A stretch of 64,000 nt of DNA from an uncultured Alphaproteobacteria bacterium (GTDB taxonomy: Bacteria > Pseudomonadota > Alphaproteobacteria > RF32 > CAG-239), in the NCBI GenBank assembly GCA_944391345.1, contig CALXTE010000003.1, positions 18,375-82,374 on the forward strand. The letters run 5' to 3'. Positions 1 through 16,946 of this stretch are shown here, one piece after another. The notes beneath the pieces were generated by a model. That model made no database searches and was not told where the DNA came from. It saw only the letters and a list, made by a program, of their open reading frames with translations. Numbering within the stretch: position 1 is the stretch's first letter; each line of letters begins with the position of its first letter. The translations under genes and the position numbers were made by a program.

Positions 1-19
1 GATTGGAAGATGGATAATC

Positions 20-57
20 TTTTTTTGTTGACTTTTGTCTAATCCTGCTTTATATCC
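20..57 (+). promoter_or_regulatory. Promoter-like cassette copy 1: T-run + GTTGACTTTTGTCTAAT 17-mer (27..43) with TTGACT -35-like and TATATC -10-like, about 63 nt upstream of the ATG at 108
   Basis: 17-mer identical to copies at 6205..6221 and 16041..16057; same spacing to the start codon in all three. Confidence 0.5.
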
Positions 58-107
58 CAAATTAGCGATTTGTATTTTTTTATTTATAATTCTTAAATTT
101 TATTTTT

Positions 108-542
108 ATGGATAATGATAATATTCAATTTCCGTTGCCGGTTCTTTATCAAAATGGGTGTCAATCATTGGCACCTTTGAAAAATGGTCTTAGGCCTGTT
201 GCTATTGTTGTCGGTGAGTTTGCTTTTATGGATGCGGCATCAAAAAGGATGCTCTTATCGTCGGCTCGACGGCATTGCAAGTCTTTGCGCTTTAAATCTT
301 TTTGTATTTCTATGGGGAGTAAGCGTGCTTGGAATGCTTTGTTAGAAAGGTCATTGGAAGATTTTAACAAGACGGCCGCGCTAATTGGCTTTAAGCCGAT
401 CGTTTTTGACGCGCCTTATTGGTTTGATCAAAAAGAAAGAGCCGAATATAGTATGGGGATTGTTGGTTTTCACCGTGTGCGCAGTATGCCTTCTGATACA
501 CTTTTGTTTTATAAGGTGCGGCCGGTTATAAAACTGAAATGA
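108..542 (+). CDS. Hypothetical protein (144 aa), no recognisable family; no SD, AT-rich leader
   Basis: Intact ORF bounded by the cassette promoter element and the shared terminator. Confidence 0.45.
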   Translation: MDNDNIQFPLPVLYQNGCQSLAPLKNGLRPVAIVVGEFAFMDAASKRMLLSSARRHCKSLRFKSFCISMGSKRAWNALLERSLEDFNKTAALIGFKPIVFDAPYWFDQKERAEYSMGIVGFHRVRSMPSDTLLFYKVRPVIKLK

Positions 543-550
543 GTTTTTAG

Positions 551-578
551 AGCTCTGCTTTGTGCAGGGCTTTTTTTA
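551..578 (+). terminator. Rho-independent terminator GCTCTGCTTTGTGCAGGGC + T-run
   Basis: Hairpin plus T7; near-identical to the terminator at 6829..6857. Confidence 0.6.
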
Positions 579-644
579 TTTTGTGCTTGATTTTTTAAAA
601 ATTTATGGTATAAGGTTGACATAGTTGGGAATATTAGTTTGAAA

Positions 645-671
645 GTGGGGTCAAAAAACCCCGCTTTTTTG
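645..671 (+). promoter_or_regulatory. Terminator-like hairpin (GTGGGGTCAAAAAACCCCGC + T6) in the rimP leader, 28 nt upstream of the start codon; possible attenuator of the rimP-nusA-infB operon
   Basis: GC stem plus T-run directly upstream of an essential operon; TTGACA -35-like at 615..620. Confidence 0.35.
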
Positions 672-698
672 TTAACTTAGTTAAAAGGAATCGCCCTT

Positions 699-1202
699 AT
701 GCAGGAACATCCGCTTTATTCTTTAATTGAGCCCGTTGTTGAAAAAGAAGGCTATGAGCTTATTCGGGTTTTGACGGTAGGCGCTAAAAATCCGACTTTG
801 CAGGTTATGATTGATCGCAAAGACGGGAAAAATATTACGGTTGATGATTGTGCCAAAGTTAGTCGTGCCTTGTCTGATGTGCTCGATGATAAAGATCCTA
901 TCGAAAGTCAATATTCTTTAGAGGTCAGTTCTCCGGGAATTGATCGCCCATTGACTAAGCCGGAACATTTTAAGCGTTTTGTCGGATATGAGGCGAAAAT
1001 CGAAACCTCTTGCGAAATTGAGAAGAGAAAGCGCTTTAAGGGTAAAATTATTTCTATTGATAATAAAGGTGTTATCTCTTTTGAAATGGATGACAAAGTT
1101 TATGCCATTCCTTTTGCTGATGTGGCAAAGGCCAAAATTTTAATTACCGATGCGTTGTTGCAAGAATTTGCCGATGCACAAGAAAATTCTGATTTACAAT
1201 AA
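699..1202 (+). CDS. rimP: Ribosome maturation factor RimP
   Basis: Protein similarity (EVSSPGIDRPL motif), AAGGAA RBS, position before nusA. Confidence 0.9.
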   Translation: MQEHPLYSLIEPVVEKEGYELIRVLTVGAKNPTLQVMIDRKDGKNITVDDCAKVSRALSDVLDDKDPIESQYSLEVSSPGIDRPLTKPEHFKRFVGYEAKIETSCEIEKRKRFKGKIISIDNKGVISFEMDDKVYAIPFADVAKAKILITDALLQEFADAQENSDLQ

Positions 1203-1228
1203 CTTTTACAAATAATGAGGATTTAATA

Positions 1229-2773
1229 ATGGAAAATATGGAAAGCATGCCGAGACCGGAAATTATCTTAGTTGCCGATACTGTGGCTCGTGAAAAAAAT
1301 ATTGACCGCGAAGATGTGTTTACGGCAATGGAAGTTGCCATTCAAAAAGGTGCTCGCTCTAAATATGGTGCAGAGCATGATATTCGCGCTAAAATTGACC
1401 GCAAAACCGGTGCTATTGCTTTGTCTCGTTATCGTGAAGTTGTGGCTGATGATGCCATTATCGAAAATGAAGCGGCTCAGTTGCCTTTGAAATTGGCAAA
1501 AAATTATAAAGCTGATGCTAAAGTCGGTGATTTTTTGGTTGATGCTCTTCCGCCGATTGATTTTGGTCGTATTGCCGCTCAAACCGCAAAACAGGTTATC
1601 GTACAAAAAGTTCGTGAAGCTGAACGCAATAAGCAGTTTGAAGAATATAAAGAAAAAATCGGTACAATTGTTAACGGTACGGTTAAGAGAATCGAGTTTG
1701 GCAATGTTATTCTTGATATTGGTAAAACCGAGGCTATTTTGCGTCGTGATGAAATTATTCCGAGAGAAAAGTTTAAGAATGGCGACCGTATTCGTGCGTA
1801 TGTTCTTGACGTTCGTCGCGAAAACAAAGGTCCGCAAATCTTTTTATCTCGTACTTGCCCAGAATTTATGGCTAAGCTCTTTACCCAAGAAGTTCCGGAA
1901 ATTTATGACGGGATTGTTAAAATTATGGGGGTTGCCCGTGATCCGGGATCAAAGGCTAAGATTGCCGTTAAGGCAGATGATATGACGGTTGATGCCGTCG
2001 GCGCTTGTGTCGGATTGCGCGGTATCAGAGTTCAAGCGGTGGTTAATGAACTCCAAGGTGAAAAAATCGACGTTGTTCCTTATTCTGAAGACAAGGCACA
2101 GTATATTGTCAGCGCTTTAGCTCCGGCAGAAGTTACAAAAGTTGTTCTTGATGAGGAAAATAATCGTATTGAAGCGGTTGTGGCTCAAGACCAGTTCTCT
2201 ATTGCTATCGGTCGTCGCGGTCAGAATGTAAAGCTTGCTTCTCAGCTTTTGGGTTGCGATATTGATGTTTTGACCGAAGAACAAGAGCAAGAGCGTCGTT
2301 CTAATGAAAACAAGGTTCGTTCTCAGCGCTTTATGGAGGCTTTGGATGTTGATGAGATGATTGCGCATCTCTTGATTGCCGAAGGCTTTTCTACCGTTGA
2401 TGAGATTGCTTTGGTTGATTTGTCAGAGCTTTCTGAAATCGAAGGTTTTGATGAAGATGTGGCTAAAGAATTGCAGAATCGTGCAAAAGAATTTGTGGCT
2501 AAGCGCGATGCCGAATTTGCCGATAAGAAAAAGTCTCTCGGTATTGACGATCAGCTTATGGGTATCAATGGTTTGGACCAAGATATGATTTTGACCCTTG
2601 CTGAAAAAGGTGTTAAAACTCTTGATGATCTGGGTGATTTGGCGGCCGATGAGCTTATTGAAATGCTCGGTGAAAATGTTATTTCTCAAACCGAGGCCAA
2701 TAAAATCATCATGGAAGCCCGTGAGCACTGGTTTACTGATGAGGAAAATGCTTCTGACGGAGAAAAGCTGTAA
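1229..2773 (+). CDS. nusA: Transcription termination/antitermination factor NusA
   Basis: 514 aa with S1/KH/AR domains; TGAGGA RBS. Confidence 0.95.
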   Translation: MENMESMPRPEIILVADTVAREKNIDREDVFTAMEVAIQKGARSKYGAEHDIRAKIDRKTGAIALSRYREVVADDAIIENEAAQLPLKLAKNYKADAKVGDFLVDALPPIDFGRIAAQTAKQVIVQKVREAERNKQFEEYKEKIGTIVNGTVKRIEFGNVILDIGKTEAILRRDEIIPREKFKNGDRIRAYVLDVRRENKGPQIFLSRTCPEFMAKLFTQEVPEIYDGIVKIMGVARDPGSKAKIAVKADDMTVDAVGACVGLRGIRVQAVVNELQGEKIDVVPYSEDKAQYIVSALAPAEVTKVVLDEENNRIEAVVAQDQFSIAIGRRGQNVKLASQLLGCDIDVLTEEQEQERRSNENKVRSQRFMEALDVDEMIAHLLIAEGFSTVDEIALVDLSELSEIEGFDEDVAKELQNRAKEFVAKRDAEFADKKKSLGIDDQLMGINGLDQDMILTLAEKGVKTLDDLGDLAADELIEMLGENVISQTEANKIIMEAREHWFTDEENASDGEKL

Positions 2774-2813
2774 TGGCTTTTCTCCGCTTTGGCGGCTTTT
2801 GAGGTGAAACATA

Positions 2814-3383
2814 ATGGAAAAAGATATTCTTAGAAAATGTATTGCCAGCGGCGAGATAAAGTCTAAGACCGATATGCTCCGTTTTGTGTTGGTTAACGGC
2901 AATACGGTGGTGCCCGATTTTTATAAAAAACTGGCAGGTAAGGGTATCTATGTTTCTAATTCAAAAAAACTGCTCGAAACAGCCGTAAATAAGCATCTTT
3001 TTGCTAAAGTCACAAAGGGAAAAGCTCATGAGGAAGATGCTCTTGTTCAAATGGTTGAGGCTTTGTTGAAGAAAAAATGCTTTGATATGCTGAATTTGGC
3101 TCGTAAAGCCGGACAATTTGTTGCCGGTTTTGAAAAAGTTAAAGAGGCGATTGTGAAAAATAAAGCGGCTTTTTTGTTAGAGGCAGGTGATGCCGGCGAT
3201 GATGGTCATCAAAAGATTTTGGCCGTTGCCGGTGATTTGGAAATTTTTGATTTATTTACTGTTGAGGAGTTGGACAAGGCACTGGATAAGGTTAATACAG
3301 TTCATGCCGCTTTGCTTAAAGGCGATATGGCAAAGGCTGTTTATAGAGAACTAAAACGTTATGAGCAGTTTATAAATGCATAA
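2814..3383 (+). CDS. YlxR (DUF448)-like RNA-binding protein fused to an L7Ae-like domain, nusA-infB intergenic gene
   Basis: Motif LRFVLVNG...GKGIYV; conserved position between nusA and infB. Confidence 0.75.
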   Translation: MEKDILRKCIASGEIKSKTDMLRFVLVNGNTVVPDFYKKLAGKGIYVSNSKKLLETAVNKHLFAKVTKGKAHEEDALVQMVEALLKKKCFDMLNLARKAGQFVAGFEKVKEAIVKNKAAFLLEAGDAGDDGHQKILAVAGDLEIFDLFTVEELDKALDKVNTVHAALLKGDMAKAVYRELKRYEQFINA

Positions 3384-3413
3384 ATTAAAAAGACGATATG
3401 GAGAAAGATATTA

Positions 3414-5918
3414 ATGACAGAAGATAGTGCAAAAAGCAGATTGACATTATCAGGGAAGTCTACCCTTACCCTTAAAAATGTGGGTGATGGCGCTAAAAGC
3501 CATAATGACGGCAAAAAGGTCGTTCAGGTTGAGGTGCGCAAAAAAAGAATTATTTCTGCCGCAAAAAAAGAAGAACCAAAAGTGCAGATTGATGATGCTA
3601 CCGCTGCTAAGCTTAAACTGATTGCCGAAGCAAAAGAGCATGAGGCAAAACGTCGTCTTGAAGAAGAAGAAAAAGAACGTCAACGCCAGTTGCGTCGCGA
3701 GCAAGAAGAGGCTCTTAAAGCTCAAAAACAAGCTGAAGAACAAGAAAAAGAAAAGGCTCAGAGCCAGCAAAAAGCTGAAAACAAACCGGTCCAACAGCTT
3801 GAGCCTCAGGCTGAGATTAATCCTGAAAAATCGGCTGTGGCGGAAGAACGTGCGGTTGCAAAGGCTAAAGACAAAAAAACTCGTGATTTTGACGATGAAG
3901 AAGATAGTGATGATGAGGGCGCTTATCGTTCTCAAAAAGGCGGAAAATCTTTAAGCAAAGAAGAGGTTTTTGAACAAGAACGCAAGAAAATTATGAAGCG
4001 CAGCTTTGAACCGCAACGCCGCGGCGGCAAAGTTAATCTTCATAATGTTATGGGCGCAATGGATGATGATGACGATGATTATGGCTACGGAGCACCTCGT
4101 CGTCGTTTTAAGAAAAAACAGCCCAAGCCCCAACAAGCGCCGCAACAGCCGGCTGAAAAAATTGTAAAAGAAGTTGTTATTCCTGAAATTATTACTGTTC
4201 AGGAACTGGCTAACCGTATGGCAGAAAAGAGTGCCGAAGTTATTAAAAAACTGATGGCTCTCGGGGTTATGGCAACGATTAATCAGCCGATTGATGCTGA
4301 TACGGCTCAAATTGTGGTTGAAGAATTTGGACACAAGGTTAAACGTGTGGCAGATAGTGATGTGGAGCAAGGTTTGACCGGACCGGAAGACAAGGCTGAA
4401 GATTTGCAGCCCAGAGCACCGGTGGTTACGGTTATGGGACACGTTGACCATGGTAAAACATCTCTGCTTGATGCTTTGCGCGAAACCAATGTGGCCGCCC
4501 GTGAAGCCGGTGGTATTACCCAGCATATCGGTGCTTATCAGATTGAAGTTGCCGGTGGTAAAAAAATTACCTTTATTGATACGCCGGGGCATGAAGCATT
4601 TTCCGAAATGCGTGCTCGCGGTGCAAAAGTTACGGATATCGTTGTGTTAGTTGTGGCTGCTAATGATGGTATTATGCCGCAGACCGTCGAGGCTATTCGT
4701 CATGCTCAGGCCGCCGAGGTTCCGATTGTGGTGGCAATTAATAAAATTGATTTGCCCGGTGCAGATCCGATGAAAGTTAAAACAGCTTTGCTGCAGCACG
4801 GAATTGCCGTTGAAGAAATGGGCGGTGATAGTTTGTGCGCCGAGGTTTCTGCCAAAAAGAGAATTAATATCGACAAGTTGGTCGAAGCAATTTTGCTGCA
4901 GGCTGAAATCCTTGATTTGAAAGCTAATCCAAACCGTTTGGCACAAGGAGCGGTTATTGAAGCTAAAATGGAAAAAGGTCGTGGTTCTGTGGCTACGGTT
5001 TTGGTTCAAAACGGCACGCTTCGTGTCGGCGATATTTGTATTGCCGGAAAAGAATGGGGCCATATTCGCGCTATGTTTAATGAAAACGGCAAAAAAGTTA
5101 CCGAAGCCGGTCCGGCAACACCGGTCGAAATTCTTGGTTTGCAAGGAACACCGGCCGCCGGTGATGATTTTGTTATTGTTAAAGATGAGGCCCAAGCCAA
5201 AGAAGTTACCAATTATCGTATTCGCAAAGAGCGCGATGCAAAGCTGGTTAAGAGCGCAAAATCAGCTATGGAGCAAATGCTTGATAAGATTAAGTCCGGT
5301 GAAGTTAAACATCTTCCGGTTATTATCAAAGCTGATGTTCAAGGCTCTATCGAAGCGATTGAAGGTACCATCAAAAAACTCTCTAATGATGAAGTCAGTG
5401 TTCAGATTTTGCACTCTGCCGTAGGTCCGATTTCGGATTCAGATGTTACCTTGGCAAAGGCTTCAAATGCCTTTATTATCGGATTTAACGTTCGTGCTAT
5501 TCCGCATGCGCGTGATCTTGCTCGTCAAGACGGCGTTGATATTCGTTATTATTCCATTATCTATGATGTGGTTGATGATATTAAGAAAGCGCTGGAAGGA
5601 ATGTTAACCCCCGAACTTAAAGAAAAGATTATCGGTTATGCCGAAATTCGTAATGTCTTTAATATTACCGGTGTTGGTAAAGTCGGTGGTTGTATGGTTA
5701 CCGAAGGTTATGTTAAACGTGGCGCAAAAGTTCGCCTGTTGCGTGATAACGTTGTTATTCACGATGGTGCTCTTGCGCAGCTCAAACGTTTCAAAGAAGA
5801 CGTCCGTGAAGTAAAATCCGGTTATGAATGCGGTATGAGTTTTGAAAACTACAACGACATTCAAGTTGGTGATTTTATTGAGTGTTATGAGGTGGAGGAG
5901 ATAGCTCCAACCCTTTAA
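3414..5918 (+). CDS. infB: Translation initiation factor IF-2
   Basis: 834 aa; GTP-binding motifs [28 protein letters not shown]; K/E/Q-rich N-terminus. Confidence 0.97.
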
Positions 5919-5924
5919 AAGTTT

Positions 5925-6047
5925 ACTCTGTGGTCGACTAATACAGATTTTGCGGATAGGAAAAATGCTCATGTACTACTGTGTACACTGCGCTTTTTCC
6001 TTCCTTAAATCTTATTACTCGACTCATTCTCCAAACTTTTTGAAAAG
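5925..6047. repeat. Intergenic repeat unit, type 1 (...GGTCGACTAATACAGATTTTGCGGATAGGAAAAATGCTCATGTACTACTGTGTACACTGCGCTTTTTCCTTCC...CTCCAAACTTTTTGAAAAG), directly after the infB stop
   Basis: Near-identical to 10460..10590 and 11456..11580; internal inverted repeats GGATAGGAAAAATGC / GCGCTTTTTCCTTCC and GTGTACAC. Confidence 0.8.
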
Positions 6048-6154
6048 TCATCTAGAGGTATTTTACGCTGTCTCGAAAAATTCATGTACTATTTGTGTAC
6101 ACTAAAATTTTTCTCGCAGCTAGAAATGCCTCTATCTGTACTATTATCCCCAGT

Positions 6155-6189
6155 TTTAAGTTCGTATAATGGTCGACTAATACAGATTT
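6155..6189. repeat. Partial repeat head (AAGTTCGTATAATGGTCGACTAATACAGATTT) abutting the cassette promoter element; a degenerate core fragment lies at 6081..6112
   Basis: Matches the 5' end of type-1 units. Confidence 0.6.
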
Positions 6190-6197
6190 GGATATCG

Positions 6198-6236
6198 TTT
6201 TTTTGTTGACTTTTGTCTAATAATATTTTAGTCTTT
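6198..6236 (+). promoter_or_regulatory. Promoter-like cassette copy 2 (17-mer at 6205..6221)
   Basis: Exact 17-mer and T-run; about 60 nt upstream of the ATG at 6282. Confidence 0.5.
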
Positions 6237-6281
6237 TTTTGTTTTTTTTATTATGATGTCAAATTTAATAATTATACTTAT

Positions 6282-6824
6282 ATGGAAAAAAAAGAAGTTT
6301 TAGATCGGATTTTTGCTCTCATGAAGGATGCAGATATATCTCCGGAAGAAGTTGCCCATTATTTTGGCGGATATTTTGTAAAAAAGGGTGGGCCTCGAGA
6401 ACGTTTTTCGTTTGAAGTTATTTATGAGAATGATAAACGTTCATGGTTTCCTTTACAAGGCGTGCAGCCAAAGGCCTTGATTATTGCGGGAAAGGCTGTT
6501 TTTATTAACCATTCGACTGATCATTTAGATTGGTTTGAGTCCGGAAAATATTGCGAAGAACAAACTATTCTTGGTAAGAAATGTTCTTGCGGTGATCGGC
6601 ATTTTTGGCTGGTTGAGGTTCGACCACGCTTGACGCAGATTAATATTCAGCGTGTAAGAATGGGGTTTGAACCACTTTGTCCTCATGATATTTTGTGGAC
6701 AGACAACGAATGTGGACTCGGAAGAGGAGCCGGAATAGTTTATTTTTCCGGAAGTCCTGATAATCTTGAGGCCAGCGGAAAGCTTAATGCCTACTTTGCC
6801 TGTCCGGTTGCTTCTTTAGATTAA
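6282..6824 (+). CDS. Hypothetical Cys-rich protein (180 aa) with no recognisable family, occupying the usual rbfA position between infB and truB
   Basis: Intact ORF. The track start at 6213 is a TTG inside the promoter element; the first ATG is at 6282. Flanked by the cassette promoter and the shared terminator. Confidence 0.5.
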   Translation: MEKKEVLDRIFALMKDADISPEEVAHYFGGYFVKKGGPRERFSFEVIYENDKRSWFPLQGVQPKALIIAGKAVFINHSTDHLDWFESGKYCEEQTILGKKCSCGDRHFWLVEVRPRLTQINIQRVRMGFEPLCPHDILWTDNECGLGRGAGIVYFSGSPDNLEASGKLNAYFACPVASLD

Positions 6825-6828
6825 GAAA

Positions 6829-6857
6829 AAGCTCTGCTTATGCAGGGCTTTTTTTGG
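6829..6857 (+). terminator. Rho-independent terminator GCTCTGCTTATGCAGGGC + T-run
   Basis: Near-identical to 551..578. Confidence 0.65.
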
Positions 6858-6933
6858 TTTTAAATCAGTTGACAGGGGGCGGTTTATCCTTTATCACCTT
6901 CGGTATAAGGTTTTAATGTTACGGAATTTTGGA

Positions 6934-7839
6934 ATGAAACATAAGGGGCAAGACATAAACGGTTGGTTGATTATAGATAAACCTCGCGGAATGGGCTCAA
7001 CCGAGGTTGTGCGCCGTACAAAACGTATTTTTAAGGCAAAGAAAAACGGGCATGCCGGAACACTTGATCCTTTTGCTACCGGAGTTTTGCCGATTGCTTT
7101 CGGTGAGGCGACAAAACTTTTGCCGTTTGTAACCGACGGGGTTAAAGAATACGAATTTGTGGTGCAGTGGGGGGCCGCGACTAATACCGATGATTCTGAC
7201 GGTGAAATTATTAAGCGCTGTGATAAAATTCCGACGCAAGAAGAAATTCTTAATATTTTGCCAGCGTTTTTAGGCAAAATCATGCAGGTGCCGCCGGCTT
7301 ATTCCGCTCTTAAAATAAACGGGCAGAGAGCCTATGATTTGGCGCGGAAAGGGGTTGACTTTTCTATTCCGCCGCGCGAGGTTGAAATTTTTGAGCTTGA
7401 ACTTGTCGAAATTCTGCCGGCGAATCGGGCAAAGTTTCGCGTGGTTTGTTCAAAAGGAACTTATGTGCGCACTTTGGGACATGATATTGCTCAAAAACTC
7501 GGTACTTTGGGCTATTTGCAGGAGCTTCGGCGTTTAAAATGCGGGCAATTTGACCTTAGACATAAAATTTTACTGGAAAATTTAGAAAATATGGTGTATG
7601 GTGATGCCCTAAATGAAGTTTTGCTTCCGATAGAAACATTTCTGTGCGACATCACGGTTATTGCTGTTTCGGAAGTTGAGGCCGCTAAGCTTAAACTCGG
7701 GCAGGCGCTCTCGCCAAAGGCTTTTGATGTTCAAAAGCTTGTCGGGCAAGAGGCGGTTGCCGTTTGTGAGGGAAAGCCGGTGGCCGTGGTGCGAATCGAG
7801 GAGCGCAGAATTGCTCCCGTTCGTGTGTTTAATCTTTAA
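6934..7839 (+). CDS. truB: tRNA pseudouridine(55) synthase TruB (alternative start at 6916)
   Basis: Motif [11 protein letters not shown]...GHAGTLDP; TTGACA/TATCAC promoter-like at 6873..6900. Confidence 0.9.
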
Positions 7840-7862
7840 AATTAAAAAAAGGAAATATACAG

Positions 7863-8132
7863 ATGTCGATTAGTCAAGATGAAGTTAAAGATATTGTCAG
7901 CAAATTTGGTTTGAATCCGAATGATACCGGTTCTCCGGAAGTTCAAATCGCTATTTGGACCGCTCGTATTAACAAACTTATTGAACATTTTAATGTTCAT
8001 AACAAAGATTTGCACTCTCGTTTGGGCTTGATGAAGATGGTTAGCCGTCGTCGTCACTTGCTCGACTATCTTAAAGCTAAAAACAGCGACAGATATCAGA
8101 ACATTATTAAAAAGCTGGATCTGCGTAAGTAA
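7863..8132 (+). CDS. rpsO: 30S ribosomal protein S15
   Basis: 89 aa, strong similarity; RBS AAGGAAA. Confidence 0.97.
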
Positions 8133-8224
8133 GAGACTTTTGGCGTTTGGAGGGAAGAGGCCGTTTTTCTTTTAGCGGCAAAGAAAGTTTTTAGCTTTTG
8201 GCTCTTTCTTCCAAGCGCTTTTTT

Positions 8225-8246
8225 GCCCCTCGGGGCTTTTGTTTTA
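8225..8246 (+). terminator. rpsO terminator GCCCCTCGGGGC + T-run
   Basis: GC hairpin followed by TTTTGTTTT. Confidence 0.6.
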
Positions 8247-8268
8247 ATTATTATGCTTTATTAAAAAT

Positions 8269-8295
8269 CCCGTGACTTTTATGACCAAGTCAGGG
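8269..8295 (+). promoter_or_regulatory. pnp 5' leader hairpin (CCCGTGACTT...AAGTCAGGG), candidate RNase III / autoregulatory site
   Basis: Long imperfect stem about 50 nt upstream of the pnp start; analogous to the known pnp leader architecture. Confidence 0.35.
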
Positions 8296-8341
8296 TGAGG
8301 TTTATAAAGATGTTAAAGATGTTATGAAAGGTGTTTGAAAT

Positions 8342-10459
8342 ATGGTCGAATTGAATATTTGCCGCAAAGAATTGGATTGGGGCGGCAGAAAATTGGTGTT
8401 GGAAACAGGTAAAGTTGCGAAGCAGGCTCTCGGTGCCGTTGAGGCTACTTATGGCGGAACAACGGTTTTGGCTACCGTTTGTGCTGCAAAAGAGGCTGCG
8501 CCCGATCAGGATTTCTTCCCTTTGACCGTTAACTATCAAGAAAAATATTATGCTACCGGTAAAATCCCCGGCGGATTTATGAAACGCGAAGGCAAGCCTT
8601 CCGAGCGCGAAGTGCTTATCTCTCGCTTGATTGACAGACCTATTCGTCCGCTGTTTCCGGATGCTTTTAAAAATGAAGTTCAAGTTATTTGTACCGTTCT
8701 TTCTCATGACCAGCAGACAGATTCCGACGTTGTGGCGATGATTGCCGCTTCCGCCGCTTTGGCAATTTCGGGTATTCCGTTCCTCGGGCCTATCGGTGCT
8801 GCTAAAATCGGTTATAAAAATGGTGAATATATCTTGAACCCGACAATTGAACAGCAAAAAGAATCTGAACTTGAGCTGGCAGTGGCCGGTACATCCGAAG
8901 GTGTGCTGATGGTTGAATCTGAGGCTCAGGAGTTGTCCGAAGAAACCATGCTTGGCGCGGTTATGTTCGGATTTGAAAACTTCCAGCCGGTTATTGCCAT
9001 GATTAACGAAATGGTTAAAGAAGCCGGAAAGCCGCGTTGGGAAATGCCGAAATTCCCGCCGGAGTTTGATGAACTCTACAACAAGCTTGAAAAAGGCTTT
9101 ATCTCTAAGTTTGAAGAAGCTTTCAAAGAAACCGATAAACTGAAACGCGGTGAGCTTGTTGCTCAGGCTTCTGAAGAGTTTAAGGCAACCCTTGATCCGG
9201 AAAATGAGTTTGAACAAAAGTTTGCTCAAGATGCTATCGAAAAATTGATGCACAAAGTTGTTCGTGAAAAAGTTTTGACAACCGGCAAACGTATTGACGG
9301 TCGTGATACCAAAACCGTTCGTCCGATTTGGTGCGAAGTTGATGTTTTGCCGATGGCTCATGGCTCAGCTATCTTTACTCGTGGTGAAACTCAGGCTTTG
9401 GTTGTTACAACCTTGGGTACGGGCGAAGATGCTCAAATTGTTGACGGTTTGATGGAAGAATATAAAGAAGACTTTATGCTGAACTATAACTTCCCGCCGT
9501 TCTCGGTTGGTGAATGTGGTCGTATCGGTAGCCCCGGACGTCGTGAAATTGGTCACGGAAAATTGGCTTGGCGTGCTATTCACCCGATGATGCCGAAAAA
9601 TAAAGATACTTTCCCTTATACCGTTCGCGTTGTTTCTGAAATTTTGGAATCAAATGGTTCTTCTTCAATGGCAACGGTTTGCGGAACAACAATGTCTTTG
9701 ATGTCGGCCGGTGTGCCAATGGCTAAACCAGTTGCCGGTATTGCTATGGGCTTGATTAAGGAAGATGACGGGCGTGTGGCTGTCTTGACCGATATTCTCG
9801 GTGATGAAGACCACCTCGGCGATATGGACTTCAAGGTTGCCGGTACAAAAGACGGTGTTACCGCTTTGCAGATGGATATTAAAATCACATCAATCACCAA
9901 AGATATTATGAAAACTGCTTTGGCTCAGGCTCATGAAGGTCGTATCCATATTTTGGGTGAGATGGCAAAGGCTATTTCTGAACCGCGTCCTCATGTTTCG
10001 GACAAAGCACCGCGTATTGTTGCAATTAAGATTCCGGTTGATAAAATTCGTGAAGTTATCGGTTCAGGCGGTAAGGTTATTCGTGAAATTACTGAAAAAA
10101 CGCACTGCAAAATTGATATCAGTGACGACGGTGTTATCAAAATCGCTTCGCTCAAAAAAGAAGACGGTGATGCCGCTCTTGAATGGATTACCGGTATTGT
10201 TGCCGAGCCGGAAGAAGGCAAAATCTATCATGGTGTTATTACCAAGATTATGGATTTTGGCGCTTTTGTTCGCTTCCTTGGAACAACCGAAGGTCTGGTT
10301 CACATTTCTGAAGTCAAGAATGAGCGCATTGCTTCCGTTTCCGACTTCTACAAAGAAGGTGACTCAATTTGGGTAAAATGTCTTGGCACGGACAACCGCG
10401 GCAAGGTTAAGCTTTCTGCGAAGAGAGTTAATCAGGAGACTGGGGAAGACCTCGAATAA
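8342..10459 (+). CDS. pnp: Polyribonucleotide nucleotidyltransferase (PNPase)
   Basis: 705 aa with RNase PH x2, KH and S1 domains; RBS AAAGGTG. Confidence 0.97.
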
Positions 10460-10600
10460 AAAAGTTCGTATAATGGTCGATTAATACAGATTTAGCGGAT
10501 AGGAAAAATGCTCATGTACTTCTATGTACACTGCGCTTTTTTCTTCCTTAAATCTTATTACTCGACTCATTCTCCGAACTTTTTGAAAAGTTCGTGTTAA
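10460..10600. repeat. Intergenic repeat unit type 1, directly after the pnp stop
   Basis: About 90% identical to 5925..6047 and 11456..11580. Confidence 0.8.
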
Positions 10601-10603
10601 AAA

Positions 10604-10634
10604 CAAAGAGATTGTTTTGCAATCTCTTTGTTTG
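10604..10634. terminator. Bidirectional terminator (CAAAGAGATTG-TTTTG-CAATCTCTTTG) between pnp (+) and the HTH gene (-)
   Basis: Perfect 11-bp stem with flanking A/T runs. Confidence 0.7.
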
Positions 10635-10635
10635 T

Positions 10636-10878
10636 TTAAGATGCTTTGATGAGTTCAAATTTTAATTTATAATTATAAATGGCGGCGATGACGGCGACGC
10701 GTCTTAATCCAAAAGCTCGGCCTTGTTCGACATTTTTAATCCGGCGGCGTGACAATCCGCTTATTTTTGATATATTATCAATGCTTAATTGGTGTTCTTG
10801 TCTAAGTTCATATAATCTCTTTCCGACTTCGGCTCGATTATCTTCTAAATAAATGATTTGTTCTTTTTTTATTCCCAT
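10636..10878 (-). CDS. XRE/Cro-type helix-turn-helix transcriptional regulator (80 aa)
   Basis: Motif QLSIDNISKISGLSRRRIKNVEQG; perfect AAGGAG RBS 8 nt before the ATG at 10878 (the longer track start at 10914 lacks an RBS). Confidence 0.7.
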   Translation of the reverse strand: MGIKKEQIIYLEDNRAEVGKRLYELRQEHQLSIDNISKISGLSRRRIKNVEQGRAFGLRRVAVIAAIYNYKLKFELIKAS

Positions 10879-10914
10879 TTTTTCAGCTCCTTTTTTATTT
10901 TGTGGTAAAAACAA

Positions 10915-11060
10915 AGCCTGCCAAGAAGGCAGGCGGAGCTAAACAACTGTTTACACACAGTCACCGTTATTCAATATATTAGCGGTACTCCGCCCAAAAG
11001 CGGAGGATTTTATTATTATGTAGGTGTTGTTTAGGCACCGTCGGTTACCTCTAACCGACA
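10915..11060 (-). other. Structured non-coding region upstream of the HTH gene with three hairpins (CCTGCC..GGCAGG, CTCCGC..GCGGAG, CGGTTA..TAACCG); the first acts as a terminator on the minus strand
   Basis: Inverted repeats read directly; no ORF. Confidence 0.2.
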
Positions 11061-11094
11061 ATGTGAGTATAAATAATGGTGATAGAGTTTGCAA

Positions 11095-11292
11095 GGAAAA
11101 GTTTGTATAACGGGCAACTAATACAGATTTAGCGGGTCTCCTCCATCCTCACGTACTACTTTGTACGCTGCGGTGTCGTCGCCCTAAAATCTTATTATTT
11201 GCCTCGTTCTCCAAACTTTTACAAAGTTTATATAACGGGTAACTAATACAGATTTAGCGGGTCTCCTCCATCCTCACGTACTAGTTTGTACC
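11095..11292. repeat. Repeat cluster part 1: type-2 unit (11095..11225) plus a truncated type-2 head (11226..11292)
   Basis: Shared AACTAATACAGATTTAGCGGGTCTCCTCCATCCTCACGTACTA core; related to type 1 at both ends. Confidence 0.75.
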
Positions 11293-11394
11293 AATTCCGA
11301 CTAAACCTTTGTTGCGAAAGCTGTCGCATTCTAACAAAGGAAAGTCTCATTGCTTATCCTTAAAGAAAGCACATTCAAGTGCTTTCTTTTGCGG
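11293..11394 (+). ncRNA. Candidate small RNA or insert inside a split repeat unit; two hairpins, the second (AGAAAGCAC-ATTCAA-GTGCTTTCT + TTTTG, 11364..11394) is an intrinsic terminator on the + strand
   Basis: Unique about 100 nt between a repeat head (11226..11292) and the matching repeat tail (11419..11455); terminator orientation. Confidence 0.25.
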
Positions 11395-11418
11395 CAGTGA
11401 TACTTTTGCCCTTGACGC

Positions 11419-11607
11419 CTACTACTCGACTCATTCTCCGAACTTTTTAAAAAACTCGTATAATGGCCGATTAATACAGATTTTGCGGATAGGAAAAATG
11501 CTCATGTACTTCTGTGTACACTGCGCTTTTTCCTTCCTTAAATCTTATTACTCGACTCATTCTCCAAACTTTTTGAAAAAACTCGTATAACGGGCAACTA
11601 ATACAGT
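11419..11607. repeat. Repeat cluster part 2: type-1 tail (11419..11455), full type-1 unit (11456..11580), type-2 head (11581..11607)
   Basis: Direct sequence identity with the other copies. Confidence 0.8.
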
Positions 11608-11628
11608 GTTATAAAGCTAGCAAATATT

Positions 11629-12201
11629 CTACGAATGTTGTTTTTGGCCGATGAGGTTGGAGTAAGCGGCCATGCCTTTTTCCAGTAAAGTCGGCAGGGT
11701 TTCGCTTATCATATCAATCTCGGCTAAAATGGTTTCTTTATCAGCTTTTGAAAAGCCGCCTAAAACATAATTTACAACTTCTTCGCCGTGTCCTTGCGGG
11801 TGGCCGACGCCAATGCGGATGCGGTTGTAATTCGGTGTAATTGCGGCGTCAATGGATTTTAGCCCGTTATGTCCGCCGGCGCCGCCGCCAAGCTTGGCTT
11901 TGAGTTTGCCGACCGGCAAGTCCATGTCGTCATGGATAACCACAATATTTTGCGGTAAAATCTTATAAAAAGAAGCGGTTTTAACGACAGAATTGCCGGA
12001 TAGATTCATAAAAGTTTGCGGCTTTAGCAAATAAACCTTTTCATTGCCGATTTTTCCTTCGGCAATGAGGCCGTCAAACTTGTTTTTAAACGTTCCGAAC
12101 GCATAGTTTTCATGCAGAGCATCAGCCGCCATAAATCCGACATTGTGGCGGGTGCCTGAATATTCTGCTCCGGGGTTTCCTAAACCGACAATCAAAAACA
12201 T
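11629..12201 (-). CDS. pth: Peptidyl-tRNA hydrolase
   Basis: Motif MFLIVGLGNPG...HNG. Confidence 0.95.
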   Translation of the reverse strand: MFLIVGLGNPGAEYSGTRHNVGFMAADALHENYAFGTFKNKFDGLIAEGKIGNEKVYLLKPQTFMNLSGNSVVKTASFYKILPQNIVVIHDDMDLPVGKLKAKLGGGAGGHNGLKSIDAAITPNYNRIRIGVGHPQGHGEEVVNYVLGGFSKADKETILAEIDMISETLPTLLEKGMAAYSNLIGQKQHS

Positions 12202-12213
12202 ATTTTTTTACCT

Positions 12214-12241
12214 TCAAAAAAAACGGGAGCTTGGCTCCCGT
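12214..12241 (-). terminator. rplY terminator (CGGGAGC-TTG-GCTCCCG + T-run on the minus strand)
   Basis: Hairpin with adjacent A8 on the plus strand. Confidence 0.6.
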
Positions 12242-12311
12242 TCTATGAGCAATTCATCATCGCAAAGCCCATCCGAGAGAAGCATAGTGGACGACTTTCA
12301 CGATGAAAAAT

Positions 12312-12602
12312 TTACTTTCTGAGAAAATCGACGTGAATAGCTTTGTCGCTAACCGGATGAAATTGAACATCCTGACATTTAACGGCATAGTTTTTACCGT
12401 CAACGTTAACGTCAATGTCAAAGCTGTATAAGCCAGCCATATCCAAAGCTTTTTCAACTTGAACAGGGTCAAGACTAATCATGACCGGAGCTTCTTTTCC
12501 ACCATAAATTACGGCAGGAATACGGCCCTCACGACGACATGCGCGAGCTGCCCCCTTACCTGCTGTTTCACGCTTTTTAGCATTAAAAATAAAATCAGCC
12601 AT
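12312..12602 (-). CDS. rplY: 50S ribosomal protein L25, short (E. coli-like, 96 aa) form
   Basis: Similarity to short L25 (IPAVIYGG...); no Ctc C-terminal extension. Confidence 0.88.
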   Translation of the reverse strand: MADFIFNAKKRETAGKGAARACRREGRIPAVIYGGKEAPVMISLDPVQVEKALDMAGLYSFDIDVNVDGKNYAVKCQDVQFHPVSDKAIHVDFLRK

Positions 12603-12733
12603 TTTTAAAATTCCTTTATTAAAAAAACAAATTTTGTGCCTTAAAACCTCCAGGGGTGTTCTAAAGCAAATTCTGTTTACCGCTTATTTGTTTAAAATGC
12701 AAGAACTTTTTTGCAAAAATATTTGATTTCTCA

Positions 12734-12772
12734 TAAAAAAATACAGAGCTGTTTGGGCTCTGTATTTTTTTG
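12734..12772. terminator. Bidirectional terminator (ATACAGAGC-TGTTTGG-GCTCTGTAT flanked by A7/T7)
   Basis: Perfect stem with A/T runs. Confidence 0.65.
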
Positions 12773-12775
12773 TTT

Positions 12776-13153
12776 TTATTCTTCTTTGGGAATTTGTTCT
12801 TCCAGCTTGTGTGATTCTGTGCCGATTTTTGTGCTGACGTAAAAGCTCAAAATTACCGGAAGAATGTACTTCATAAAGTTTTCAGTGACACCGGTTAAAA
12901 TAAAGGTGTTTATAACAGAATAGTTTAATGCTAAAACAAATAAACTCCACATTTTTTCATTCAGATGTTTTAGTTTGGTAATTTTATTTTCGTTTTTTTC
13001 CTGTTTTTTTAAGATGTCGTTAAACTTACTTTTTAAATAGGAAAAATATGCAAAAGATAAAATCACCAGTAGAAACATAATAATCAGGTAGAGATTTTCT
13101 AATACGACTTCTTTCATAACATCAAATTTTTGTTGTTTATAATAAAAACACAA
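12776..13153 (-). CDS. Small integral membrane protein (3 predicted TM helices), unknown function
   Basis: Hydrophobic segments; AT-rich; alternative start at 13117. Confidence 0.5.
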   Translation of the reverse strand: MCFYYKQQKFDVMKEVVLENLYLIIMFLLVILSFAYFSYLKSKFNDILKKQEKNENKITKLKHLNEKMWSLFVLALNYSVINTFILTGVTENFMKYILPVILSFYVSTKIGTESHKLEEQIPKEE

Positions 13154-13174
13154 GCAGCATTTGTTTTCTATAGA

Positions 13175-13654
13175 TTAAGCTGTTTCCGGTTCAACTTTTA
13201 GCCGATCACTGGTGCAGACGATGACCTTTACGGCCACTGTGTCACCGATTTTGTATTTTTGACGAGAAGCATTAACCAGCTCTGCCGGAAAACTCTCGTC
13301 TTTGTTGGCTATATTAAGTTCACCAAAAATTCGTCCGCTTTCTATTCTCTCTACTTTGAAAAAATGAGTTTCATTTTCCATAACGGCTTTAAACTCGTTT
13401 TCTACAAATGATAAAGAATATAGATTGGTTCCTAGTCCGAACACAATTGCCCCGTAAATCCAGCGACTGCTTAATACATCATGAAAATAACAAATGATGC
13501 TGAAAACAATCAAAAGGAAAAAACAAAATAAAACCCATAACTTCCATAAAAGTTGTTTGTCAAAGTTCCAAAAGGGGGTTTTGAACAGTGCATAAAAGAA
13601 ATTTGCCAGATTTCCTAAAATGATAATCCACAAAAAAATTTCAAGCGTTTCCAT
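13175..13654 (-). CDS. Membrane protein (159 aa): N-terminal 3 TM helices plus C-terminal beta-rich soluble domain; paralog of 13764..14243
   Basis: About 30% identity with its neighbour along the full length; conserved 5' region. Confidence 0.6.
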   Translation of the reverse strand: METLEIFLWIIILGNLANFFYALFKTPFWNFDKQLLWKLWVLFCFFLLIVFSIICYFHDVLSSRWIYGAIVFGLGTNLYSLSFVENEFKAVMENETHFFKVERIESGRIFGELNIANKDESFPAELVNASRQKYKIGDTVAVKVIVCTSDRLKVEPETA

Positions 13655-13730
13655 AACAATAAGGTTTATAGATTAATAATCAAAATAATAGTTCTCTGAT
13701 TTTCAAGTAGCATTTTAATTTTAAAGAGTC

Positions 13731-13766
13731 AAACAAAAAGGAGAGCCCAAAGCTCTCCTTTTTTTA
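13731..13766 (-). terminator. Terminator between the two paralogs (AGGAGAGC-CCAAA-GCTCTCCT with A/T runs)
   Basis: Hairpin plus T-run on the minus strand. Confidence 0.55.
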
Positions 13767-14243
13767 ATTTTCAGCAGGTTCAACAATGATTTCATTCGGA
13801 TGGCACAGCAGAACTCTGACCGGAATAATTTCACCATAGTGATAATCGGCATAAAGCGGACATACGAGCCGCGCTTCAACAGTTTCTTTAGTGCTATGAA
13901 TGGCTAATGTTCCTCGCACTTTATTGTTTTGCCACGATGTTAGGCGAAATAGATGAATTTCTCCATACATAACGGAGTTAAATTTTTCATCAAGAAGATG
14001 TCTGCTAATTAGCCCCATAATGACGGTAAGCACAATTATTGCCAAATACCATGCTTGTTGGGCATTTTCTTTTTGAAAATAAACATAGCTTAAAATGCCA
14101 AGTACTAAAATACACAAGCCATTAGCCGTTTTCCAAAAAGAACGTTTGTAGTCGTTCAGAAATGGTCGTTTGATAACGGCATAGATAAATTCCAATAGGA
14201 ATAAGGTGCAAATAAGACCCATAAAAAATTCAAGTGCTGTCAT
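13764..14243 (-). CDS. Membrane protein (159 aa), paralog of 13175..13654
   Basis: Same architecture; upstream 14244..14310 about 85% identical to 13655..13730. Confidence 0.6.
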   Translation of the reverse strand: MTALEFFMGLICTLFLLEFIYAVIKRPFLNDYKRSFWKTANGLCILVLGILSYVYFQKENAQQAWYLAIIVLTVIMGLISRHLLDEKFNSVMYGEIHLFRLTSWQNNKVRGTLAIHSTKETVEARLVCPLYADYHYGEIIPVRVLLCHPNEIIVEPAEN

Positions 14244-14345
14244 AAAAATAAGGTTTTATAAATTAATAACTAAAATAATAATTCTCTGATTTTTAAGTAG
14301 CACCTTGTGACAAAAATGTCAAATAAAAGATTTATGCTTTGGTTC

Positions 14346-14816
14346 TTAGCCTTGAGGGAAGAGGTGGGTTTGGCGCAAGCCTTCACCCAAGACCATGGCC
14401 GCCGAAATCGCCATATTAATCGAACGAGCGTTTTTGTTCATCGGGATTAAAAGCCGTGCATCAACAGTTTCATGAACTTCTTGCGGAACGCCGGCGCTCT
14501 CTCTGCCCATTAAGATAATGTCGTTTTTTGCAAAACTGAACTCAGTATAAGGATTTGACGCATGAGTGGTCATTAAAACCAAGCGCCCGTATTCTTCGGG
14601 ATGGCTTTGGCGAAAAGCTAAGAAATCTTGCCAAGAATTATGTCGGCGGTAGGATACTTGTTCCAGATAGTCCATACCGGCGCGGTGCATGGCTTTTTCA
14701 TTAAAAATAAAGCCGCAAGGTTCAATGATATCCAGAGCAACGTCCAAACAAGCCCCAAGCCGCAGTAATGTGCCGGTATTTTGCGGAATGTCGGGTTGAA
14801 ACAAAGCTAAGCGCAT
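14346..14816 (-). CDS. trmL: tRNA (cytidine/uridine-2'-O)-methyltransferase TrmL (SpoU family)
   Basis: 156 aa, SPOUT motifs. Confidence 0.8.
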   Translation of the reverse strand: MRLALFQPDIPQNTGTLLRLGACLDVALDIIEPCGFIFNEKAMHRAGMDYLEQVSYRRHNSWQDFLAFRQSHPEEYGRLVLMTTHASNPYTEFSFAKNDIILMGRESAGVPQEVHETVDARLLIPMNKNARSINMAISAAMVLGEGLRQTHLFPQG

Positions 14817-14832
14817 TTTTTTGCCTTACCAT

Positions 14833-15945
14833 TTATACATTGAACAAGAAGAGTAAGACATCGCCGTCTTGGACGACATAGTCTTTGCCTTCGGAGCGGA
14901 CTTTTCCGGCTTCTTTGCAGCCTTGTTCGCCGCCAAATTTGATGAAGTCATCAAAGGAAATGGTTTCGGCGCGGATGAAGCCTTTTTCAAAGTCAGAGTG
15001 GATGATTCCGGCGCATTGCGGGGCTTTTGAGCCTTTGATAAAAGTCCATGCCCGAACTTCCTTTGGTCCGCAAGTGAAGTAAGTTTGCAAGCCTAAAAGC
15101 TTGTAGCCGGCGCGGATAATCTTGGCTAAGCCGGTTTCTGACAAGCCTAAAGAGTCCAAAAATTCTTTTTTCTCTTCTTCATTATCAAGCTGGGCAACTT
15201 CGGATTCGATTTCGGCCGAGATAATGACCGCTTCGGTTCCTTCTTTTTTGGCACGTTCTTCAACTTGTTTAGAAAACTCATTGCCCTCAGCGGCGGAAGC
15301 TTCATCGACATTGCAAACGTATAAAACCGGTTTTGAGGTTAAAAGCTGGAGCATTTCGTATTGTTTATAAGCCTCTTTATCCGATTTATCCGGTGCGGCG
15401 GAACGTGCCGGTTTGCCGGCGCGAAGAGCTTCGATAATCGGTTCCATAACTTGGGCGCGGATTTTGGCCTCTTTGTCACCACCGGTTTGGGCTTTTTTCT
15501 TGGTTTGTTCAAAGCGTTTTTCCAAAGACTCTAAGTCGGCAATCATTAACTCGGTTTCGACAATGTCGGCGTCGCGAATGGGGTCTACCGAGCCTTCGAC
15601 ATGGGTGATGTTGTCGTCTTCAAAACAACGCAAAACGTGAATAATCGCGTCGACCTCACGGATGTTGGCCAAAAACTGGTTGCCTAAGCCTTCGCCTTTA
15701 GACGCACCTTTTACTAATCCGGCAATGTCAACAAATTCAAGTTGAGTCGGCGTGACCATGCGTGGTTTTACAATTTCGGTCAGCTGTTTTAATCTTTCGT
15801 CCGGAACGGCGACGCGGCCGGTGTTCGGCTCAATCGTGCAAAACGGAAAATTTGCCGCCTGTGCCGCAATCGTTTGTGTTAAAGCGTTAAACAACGTCGA
15901 TTTTCCGACATTCGGCAAACCGACTATTCCGCAATTAAACCCCAT
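14833..15945 (-). CDS. ychF: Ribosome-binding ATPase YchF
   Basis: Motif [18 protein letters not shown]; TGS domain. Confidence 0.95.
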
Positions 15946-16032
15946 TAAAAAAACTCCTTAAAAACAAAATCTTAAAAATTGATTTGGTTATAACCGAATT
16001 CAATTGAGATTGCAACCGCTTTTTTGAGGTGG

Positions 16033-16075
16033 TTTTTTTTGTTGACTTTTGTCTAATTGGTGGTATGTTAGGTTC
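16033..16075 (+). promoter_or_regulatory. Promoter-like cassette copy 3 (17-mer at 16041..16057) upstream of thyA
   Basis: Exact 17-mer plus T-run, 57 nt before the thyA ATG. Confidence 0.5.
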
Positions 16076-16114
16076 AATTCACTTTATTATTAATTCTTAA
16101 AATATTATTTTTTT

Positions 16115-16900: not shown

Positions 16901-16916
16901 ATTTTTTTCTTTGTTT

Positions 16917-16946
16917 CGGGGTTGCCTGCGGGCAGCCCTTTTTTTA
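16917..16946 (+). terminator. thyA terminator (GGGTTGCCTGCGGGCAGCCC + T7)
   Basis: GC hairpin plus T-run. Confidence 0.6.

Follow-up and report, generated by a model that had tools for sequence, protein, structure and literature searches.

A fast-diverging family of lectin-like genes, probably carried in conserved promoter–terminator cassettes, in uncultured gut Alphaproteobacteria

In a 64-kb stretch of DNA from an uncultured Alphaproteobacteria bacterium (hereafter the window), infB and truB are separated by an open reading frame (ORF) of 180 codons, ORF180 (6282–6824, plus strand, with ATG at 6282 and the stop at 6824), at the place where rbfA normally lies. The initial annotation of this locus described ORF180 as a protein of no recognisable family, sharing its promoter and terminator with an unrelated ORF of 144 codons, ORF144 (108–542, plus strand), and regarded the two as mobile or recombined expression cassettes. 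What, then, is ORF180, does it stand in for RbfA, and what do the shared ends mean? The answer that we consider probable is that ORF180 is a lectin-like member of a fast-diverging family, in which each copy sits within a conserved promoter–terminator cassette at a fixed slot and the coding part is replaced.

There are seven cluster-level homologs of ORF180, 73–82% identical, all of them metagenomic and unnamed. Compared with two related metagenome-assembled genomes (MAGs), its ratio of nonsynonymous to synonymous substitution rates (dN/dS) was 0.14–0.18, which indicated purifying selection, and its dN was ~6-fold that of infB. By these measures, ORF180 is a real gene kept by selection. It is also not unrelated to ORF144, as had been thought: with 23% identity over 116 aa in tblastn (E 3e-7) and 22 invariant columns in their alignment, the two are, by these comparisons, distant paralogs of one family, ORF144 lacking the N-terminal helices of ORF180 and matching the hidden Markov model (HMM) of the family at E 1.7e-34. 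A third paralog, ORF178 (family HMM E ~1e-23), is found in relatives between infB and ORF180, where the window has repeat units only; it is also absent from one relative.

A profile built from ORF180 and ORF144 retrieved 63 clusters (50% identity) at E ≤ 1e-3 from 1.84 billion representative proteins, nearly all of 140–200 aa, and every member that carries a name at its source is called "hypothetical protein". Their consensus reads PFEV.Y.DG.RS…G..P.GVI…M.W..A..YC…G..C..G…FW…N…LGG.PL…YWT…VRPV..L. So far, this multi-copy and rapidly diversifying family has been seen only in uncultured, mostly human-gut Alphaproteobacteria. The Cys motifs to which attention had been drawn (CSCG, CPHD and ECG) are not conserved features: among the six Cys of ORF180, C91, C101 and C174 are kept between orthologs while C103, C133 and C144 vary, and only C91 and C101 are near-invariant across the family. 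We had considered a zinc-binding protein, given these motifs and a weak match to a CSL zinc ribbon (E 0.14), and rejected it since three of the six Cys are unconserved even among orthologs. The fastest-evolving parts of ORF180 are residues 1–40 and 136–172, with a dN of ~0.19–0.25 as compared with 0.06 in the core.

Direct scans of Pfam, NCBIfam, PHROG and PADLOC gave no usable match for ORF180 or ORF144, and the PADLOC defence models likewise matched neither these two nor ORF178 and three other members. Lcl_C (PF07603) was not matched by ORF180 or ORF144 even at E ≤ 1. It was, however, matched at E ≤ 0.1 by 8 of 50 family members, and one of them, P0026, passed the Lcl_C gathering score of 34.9 bits (40.8 bits, E 3e-10) and matched the ORF180+ORF144 profile at E 2.5e-13. 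Because P0026 bridges the family profile and Lcl_C, we take ORF180 to be a distant relative within the Lcl_C superfamily rather than a member as defined by Pfam. Against the PDB, the family profile gave weak matches to snaclec and lithostathine, which are C-type lectins from snake venom and pancreas, respectively.

An AlphaFold2 (AF2) model of ORF180 built on 41 sequences reached a mean predicted local distance difference test score (pLDDT) of 80, with more than 90 in the core (an earlier model on 12 sequences, with a pLDDT of 59, was not used). The predicted fold is C-type-lectin-like and closest to the C-terminal domain of Lcl, and the regions modelled with least confidence coincide with the fastest-evolving residues, 1–40 and 136–172. 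The initial annotation had proposed structure prediction and profile searches; Foldseek returned no significant match for the model in the PDB, and the AF2 model together with the P0026 bridge show a core (approximately residues 41–180) predicted to be a C-type-lectin-like domain (CTLD) of the Lcl_C/DUF1566 superfamily. The statement that the protein has no recognisable family can thus be replaced.

The closest known protein for comparison is Lcl of Legionella pneumophila (PDB 8q4e), a PF07603 protein whose domain has been described as CTLD-like, as is the predicted fold of ORF180, and which shares with our family the pattern W..A..YC … G … W … YW(T/S) … VRPV. The conserved DUF1566 residues of Lcl are located for the most part in its core, and a role in binding carbohydrate and/or promoting trimer formation was proposed for the domain (PMC11162425). 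Unlike Lcl, ORF180 is a stand-alone protein of ~180 aa with neither signal peptide nor collagen stalk or fibre, and the multi-copy, hypervariable family of which it is part has conserved expression signals of its own. No transmembrane or hydrophobic segment was found in its sequence either. Its N-terminus is predicted to form a two-helix segment (approximately residues 3–29), which in two members resembles weakly the dimerisation region of H-NS (E 0.002–0.07). Canonical Ca2+-dependent C-type lectins (PF00059) are secreted and have EPN or QPD and WND motifs for Ca2+ and sugar binding and two conserved disulfides. In ORF180 there is no EPN or QPD, the sole related motif being W139-T-D, and the best Lectin_C match of any family member had an E value of 0.09. 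As a side observation, two of the collected metagenome loci hold weakly related DUF1566-like ORFs (L047, 10884–12513; L033, ~13561–14097, minus strand, at a contig end) beside genes with ordinary Shine-Dalgarno sequences and signal-peptide-like N-termini, a hint that the cassette family, devoid of signal peptides, may derive from secreted Lcl_C-type proteins.

In the model, residues 136–172 correspond to the long-loop, ligand-binding region of a CTLD. A hypervariable C-terminal binding region on such a fold is what the variable proteins of diversity-generating retroelements (DGRs) also show: the C-terminal third of ORF180 is its most variable part, and DGRs often target proteins with CLec or DUF1566 folds. 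Yet the 64-kb window has no template repeat that matches the 3' region of either ORF180 or ORF144, no reverse transcriptase gene occurs in any annotated neighbourhood, and variation extends to the N-terminus and to whole alleles. We consider it extremely unlikely that ORF180 is the variable protein of a DGR.

Next to the protein, what sets the family apart is the DNA around it. The 17-mer TTGTTGACTTTTGTCTA occurs exactly three times in the window, at 25–41, 6203–6219 and 16039–16055, ahead of ORF144, ORF180 and thyA (16115–16900), respectively. Allowing up to three mismatches added no further copy, with 0.39 expected by chance, and none of 100 shuffled sequences reached three. Ahead of ORF180 (6198–6234, plus strand), we recognised a T-tract (6198–6204), a −35 hexamer TTGACT (6206–6211), a kept spacer TTTGTCTAA and a putative −10 TAGTCT (6229–6234) at a spacing of 17 nt; all three window copies have the T-tract, the TTGACT −35 and a TAnnnT −10 at 16–17 nt. 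The copy of ORF144 with its leader (18–107, plus strand) begins directly 3' of the stop codon of an lptF/G-type gene, and that of thyA, with a similar leader, spans 16032–16114 (plus strand). A core of 21 nt was invariant across nine upstream regions taken from the window and its relatives, orthologous positions included. From this layout we infer that the conserved 5' element is an active sigma-70 promoter. A box of FNR/Crp type (TTGAC-N4-GTCTA), or a −10 located in the TATTAT/TATAAT block of the leader, was also considered; the arrangement TTGACT-N16/17-(TG)nTAnnnT fits all copies.

The leader that follows (6235–6281 for ORF180, plus strand) is ~45–50 nt long and AT-rich in the aligned upstream regions, and has no Shine-Dalgarno sequence; rimP, nusA and infB show AGGA/GAGG sites. 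Its block TTATTATGA…TAATAATTAT is common to other family leaders. Overall, the promoter was present 5' of 36 of 45 family ORFs, and of the nine ORFs without it, six are orthologs of ORF178 and two are truncated by contig ends. Searching metagenome contigs at the DNA level for exact matches to the 20-mer TTTTTGTTGACTTTTGTCTA gave 25 loci, many of them from human gut. At ~12 of ~20 distinct sites the first ORF is a family gene according to the HMM, starting 71–81 nt downstream; four or five sites lie ahead of other orphan ORFs without Pfam family, and three are followed by no ORF or run into a contig end. Conversely, family genes that had been found by protein similarity alone (five loci, L019, L020 and L046–L048, of 10–20 kb) have the motif with 0–2 mismatches, 70–78 nt before the ATG, and the motif occurs nowhere else in these loci. 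A full-text search of the literature found no paper describing the motif.

Two observations bear on other users of this promoter. First, thyA is the only housekeeping gene that we have seen with it, together with a similar leader lacking a Shine-Dalgarno sequence; promoter capture is a possibility, or else thyA may lie in a former cassette slot. Second, the orphan ORFs without Pfam family that follow the 20-nt core include one of 243 aa (L031, 5227–6060), one of 338 aa (L034, ~580–1719, minus strand) and those of L030/L040 and L025. The first two look mutually homologous, which suggests that a second family may use the same promoter.

At the 3' end, the initial annotation had reported near-identical terminators after the two ORFs, and so we found them: both have the same 7-bp stem GCTCTGC/GCAGGGC followed by T7, and differ in the loop. 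The predicted intrinsic terminator of ORF180 (6824–6855, plus strand) has an A-run, a hairpin at 6831–6848 and the loop TTAT (−18.9 kcal/mol, z −6.0); that of ORF144 (549–580, plus strand) has its hairpin at 552–570 and the loop TTTGT (−15.0 kcal/mol, z −4.5). Both are variants of a hairpin, GCYCTGAG-N4-8-CTCRGRGC, that was found as AAAGCYCTGAG-N4-8-CTCRGRGCTTTT in ~28 of 40 distinct 3' flanks of family genes, with compensatory changes in the stem (e.g., GCTCCAAG…CTTGGAGC). In 431 kb of loci, nearly all instances of this hairpin immediately follow a family ORF or immediately precede a family promoter. The promoter–ORF–terminator module with common 5' and 3' elements, as it had been proposed for ORF180 and ORF144, is thus real. 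We also looked at GGTATAAGG, which lies 3' of both window terminators (607 and 6902), as a possible extension of the cassette homology. Because the family promoters use the same TGGTATAAG, it is more simply explained as the extended −10 consensus of the organism.

Might the shared ends be just the organism's generic consensus for a strong promoter and a strong terminator, that is, functional convergence instead of a cassette? The same promoter core stands ahead of thyA, the −10 region TGGTATAAG is found at the rimP promoter too, and GC stems and T-runs are required of any terminator. However, a consensus of general use is at odds with three copies in 64 kb even when up to three mismatches are allowed, and with the ~20-kb loci of other genera, where the motif stands ahead of family genes in every instance and is found at no housekeeping gene. 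Nearly all terminator hairpins in the 431 kb of loci likewise adjoin family genes. Moreover, the conserved spacer sequence is dispensable for recognition by sigma-70, and homology between copies stops exactly at the outer T-tracts (see below). We therefore judge convergence on generic signals improbable, and take the comparison to show that the conserved ends mark the family specifically but not exclusively, as far as the collected loci reach.

The extent of the unit could be read from a locus in which it is present twice. In L046, one copy follows leuA and another, in a different slot, follows prfC. Their homology sets in at the promoter T-tract and stops at the terminator T-tract, with 83% identity overall and 100% over the promoter, leader and first codons. 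This alignment shows the whole unit, from T-tract to T-tract, to be the unit of duplication. Between the two copies (10250–10520 and 12830–13090), divergence is concentrated in short patches of the C-terminal third with near-identical blocks between them, a pattern as would be expected from segmental conversion or from focused diversifying selection.

Comparison of close genomes revealed a second type of change. Between the relatives L009 and L010, both sides of ORF144, promoter and leader included, are 95–100% identical, and identity falls to 40–70% from the ATG of ORF144 to its terminator; dS is 1.28 for ORF144 as compared with 0.13–0.17 in nusA and infB. ORF178 shows the same pattern, with coding divergence of the L009/L010 type between kept flanks. 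In another genus, the slots after leuA, prfC and tig differ in the number and type of family genes in strains that are otherwise collinear. Taken as they stand, these alignments show that the coding part is replaced or lost between close genomes while the flanks stay. Diversity within the family appears to come from allele replacement together with ordinary divergence.

Such behaviour raises the question of whether a site-specific recombinase moves the units, with the hairpins as recombination sites, in the manner of integron cassettes or pdif modules. The units do have sharp boundaries, the palindromic hairpin often brackets them on both sides, their number per slot varies between strains, and some relatives have ORF178 while others lack it. 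An integron cassette, however, is a promoterless ORF with an attC site, an imperfect palindrome of 57–141 nt, and intI lies nearby. The units described here resemble integron cassettes in being modular, sharp-ended and arranged in arrays, but they carry their own promoter-like element; their hairpins, of 20–28 nt with variable loops, compensatory stems and a T-run, are those of RNA terminators and unlike attC; and neither attC nor any integrase or recombinase gene was seen in the annotated neighbourhoods. In addition, the slots are syntenic between relatives. Movement by a recombinase of this type seems to us unlikely, to about the same degree as generic convergence. What stands of the original idea of mobile or recombined cassettes is a recurrent unit that is duplicated as such and whose coding part is swapped; the locus itself, in a syntenic slot with no recombinase and no attC, does not look mobile.

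A phage source was envisaged as well, as the morons of lambdoid phages are autonomous promoter–ORF–terminator units inserted between genes. The likeness is in the architecture, a self-contained unit with a sigma-70 promoter and an intrinsic terminator between unrelated operons. Morons, though, are heterogeneous and have no single common promoter or terminator sequence, whereas here the ends are shared among copies; there is no prophage context, the neighbours being rimP–nusA–infB on one side and truB–rpsO–pnp on the other, and no PHROG match was obtained. A phage origin was rejected, as the motif occurred in 0 of 2.9 million viral contigs.

We then come back to the slot itself. The absence of rbfA between infB, which ends at 5918, and truB, which starts at 6916 (or 6934), was verified: with RbfA of a close relative (L001, 7145–7534) as a query, tblastn returned only noise in the 64-kb window (best E 6.4), and no rbfA was found in the 10 kb upstream of the window either. 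Relatives, namely two MAGs labelled uncultured Alphaproteobacteria/proteobacterium and several metagenome contigs whose RimP, NusA and InfB are 95–99% identical to those of the window, have the order ORF144–rimP–nusA–ylxR–infB–(ORF178)–ORF180. Further 3', they have rplI–rpsR–rpsF on the opposite strand, then a gene for a Mg-chelatase/ComM-type ATPase (Pfam ChlI, Mg_chelatase) and one for a trypsin-like protein, and they keep a normal rbfA (PF02033) ~6.3 kb farther along. The order ORF180–truB of the window was seen again in at least five independent assemblies, and the breakpoint separating the two arrangements lies within the terminator or just after it. Because relatives with 95–99% identical InfB and NusA carry ORF180 right after infB, ORF180 is, judged from gene order, a conserved resident of this slot and not an insertion private to the window genome. 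The initial annotation had set its cassette reading against the case of relatives having the same ORF at this locus free of cassette elements; half of this was observed, as the ORF is there in relatives, but with the cassette promoter.

These relatives also bear on whether ORF180 could be a functional substitute of RbfA by non-orthologous displacement. Its position between infB and truB, and the lack of rbfA in the window and in the 10 kb upstream, would agree with it. But the close relatives have both genes, RbfA (~120 aa) is a KH-like protein whereas ORF180 is predicted to have a CTLD fold and gave no Pfam match, PF02033 included, and a multi-copy, fast-evolving family is unlike a ribosome-maturation factor. 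We give hardly any credence to displacement. ORF180 does not replace RbfA; rbfA is already uncoupled from infB in this clade, which explains the broken infB–rbfA–truB synteny without assuming that rbfA was lost.

Several points weigh against ORF180 being a lectin-like member of a family defined by its cassette. ORF180 itself reaches no Pfam or NCBIfam threshold, and it has no signal peptide, whereas known Lcl_C proteins are secreted or located at the surface. Use of the promoter extends beyond the family, to thyA and a few unrelated orphan ORFs, and ORF178 is a member without it. The loci from the metagenome search were chosen by the exact motif, so that invariance among them is circular and only the protein-found loci are independent. 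Finally, the promoter, the terminator and the co-regulation are all inferred from DNA sequence.

With these reservations, we still hold the lectin-like cassette family to be the probable explanation and propose the following scheme. Each copy would be an autonomous unit of ~0.6–0.75 kb, made of the T-tract, a sigma-70-type promoter in which TTGTTGACTTTTGTCTA is near-invariant, the −10 at 17 nt, a leader without Shine-Dalgarno sequence, the ORF and the hairpin terminator. The units would occupy fixed intergenic slots beside housekeeping operons, in this case just downstream of infB. The conserved 5' element may serve in addition as an operator that co-regulates all copies, and recombination of RecA type between copies may use the conserved ends as homology arms. 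The protein would be a ligand-binding module, with its specificity set by the variable residues 136–172, and its N-terminal helices may mediate oligomerisation. It may act within the cell or leave it by a non-Sec route. One can go further and imagine a dedicated chromosomal system for diversifying lectin-like binders, in which the ends are at once a common operator and portable recombination sites that move coding segments between slots and strains, by an exchange that is recombinase-independent or due to a novel recombinase, and distinct from integrons, shufflons and DGRs. We regard this extension as rather unlikely, somewhat less so than the generic-signal and recombinase alternatives discussed above.

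The closest parallel for the conserved ends is the erp family of Borrelia, in which divergent paralogs at allelic positions share conserved promoter/operator DNA and recombination joined one promoter and leader to diverse coding sequences (PMC10016077). The likeness to erp and its "upstream homology box" lies in the conserved promoter DNA over divergent paralogs and in the allelic positions. In contrast, Erp proteins are lipoproteins encoded on cp32 prophage plasmids, and in them the conserved part runs on into the signal peptide. The genes described here lie on the chromosome between housekeeping operons, their products are devoid of signal peptides, and conservation extends to the terminator. 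The protein fold and the placement of paralogs under one promoter, as in erp, are thus already known, and what is so far undescribed is the combination found here: a large family, in uncultured human-gut Alphaproteobacteria, of small lectin-like proteins that have no signal peptide, a promoter identical over 20 nt although the proteins are ~20–25% identical, a conserved terminator stem, sharp unit boundaries, and substitution of the entire coding part between genomes whose flanks are otherwise 98–100% identical. If the proteins bind host or microbes, this would be a candidate system behind differences between strains in how they colonise the gut, and the invariant promoter provides a simple sequence handle to find all such genes and their regulator.

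Between infB and the ORF180 cassette lie 275 nt of palindromic repeat units (5916–6190, plus strand; repeat families D1–D4), the intergenic repeats that had been noticed in the infB–truB interval. There are two hairpin units, ~5926–6046 and ~6047–6157, and a partial one at 6158–6189; the two fold as long hairpins, of −36.4 kcal/mol (z −7.7) and −33.0 kcal/mol (z −6.95). Units of the same kind, ~125 nt long, palindromic and resembling miniature inverted-repeat transposable elements or repetitive extragenic palindromes, were found again in an array after pnp (10459–11610), so that they stand in tandem after both infB and pnp, and their number at corresponding sites differs among relatives. An Rfam scan of positions 1–17000 at E ≤ 1 gave chance-level matches only, and neither the repeats nor the leader or terminator fit a known RNA family. 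Just downstream of pnp, an ORF of 80 aa resembling HTH_19 lies on the minus strand (~10636–10878, a position mapped from L011).

The housekeeping genes around the two cassettes are rimP (699–1202), nusA (1229–2773), a ylxR-like gene (2814–3383) and infB (3414–5918), followed beyond ORF180 by truB (6916–7839), rpsO (7863–8132) and pnp (8342–10459). The start of truB is ambiguous: the longest ORF begins at 6916 (307 aa), and the gene callers of public assemblies choose 6934 (301 aa). In the leader just 5' of rimP (640–680), a hairpin, GGGGTCAAAAAACCCC, is followed by a T-run and looks like a putative transcription attenuator of the rimP–nusA–infB operon. Elsewhere in the window, two tandem paralogous ORFs of 159 aa (13175–13654 and 13764–14243, minus strand), whose flanks are duplicated too (repeat D5), probably encode small membrane proteins, with no family assignment. 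Lastly, an 81-nt repeat, 73% identical, at 56880–56960 and 57353–57433 lies within two adjoining minus-strand ORFs (56547–57059 and 57059–57439). Its differences are not adenine-specific, which ruled it out as a template/variable repeat pair of a DGR, and the two ORFs are probably tandem paralogs.

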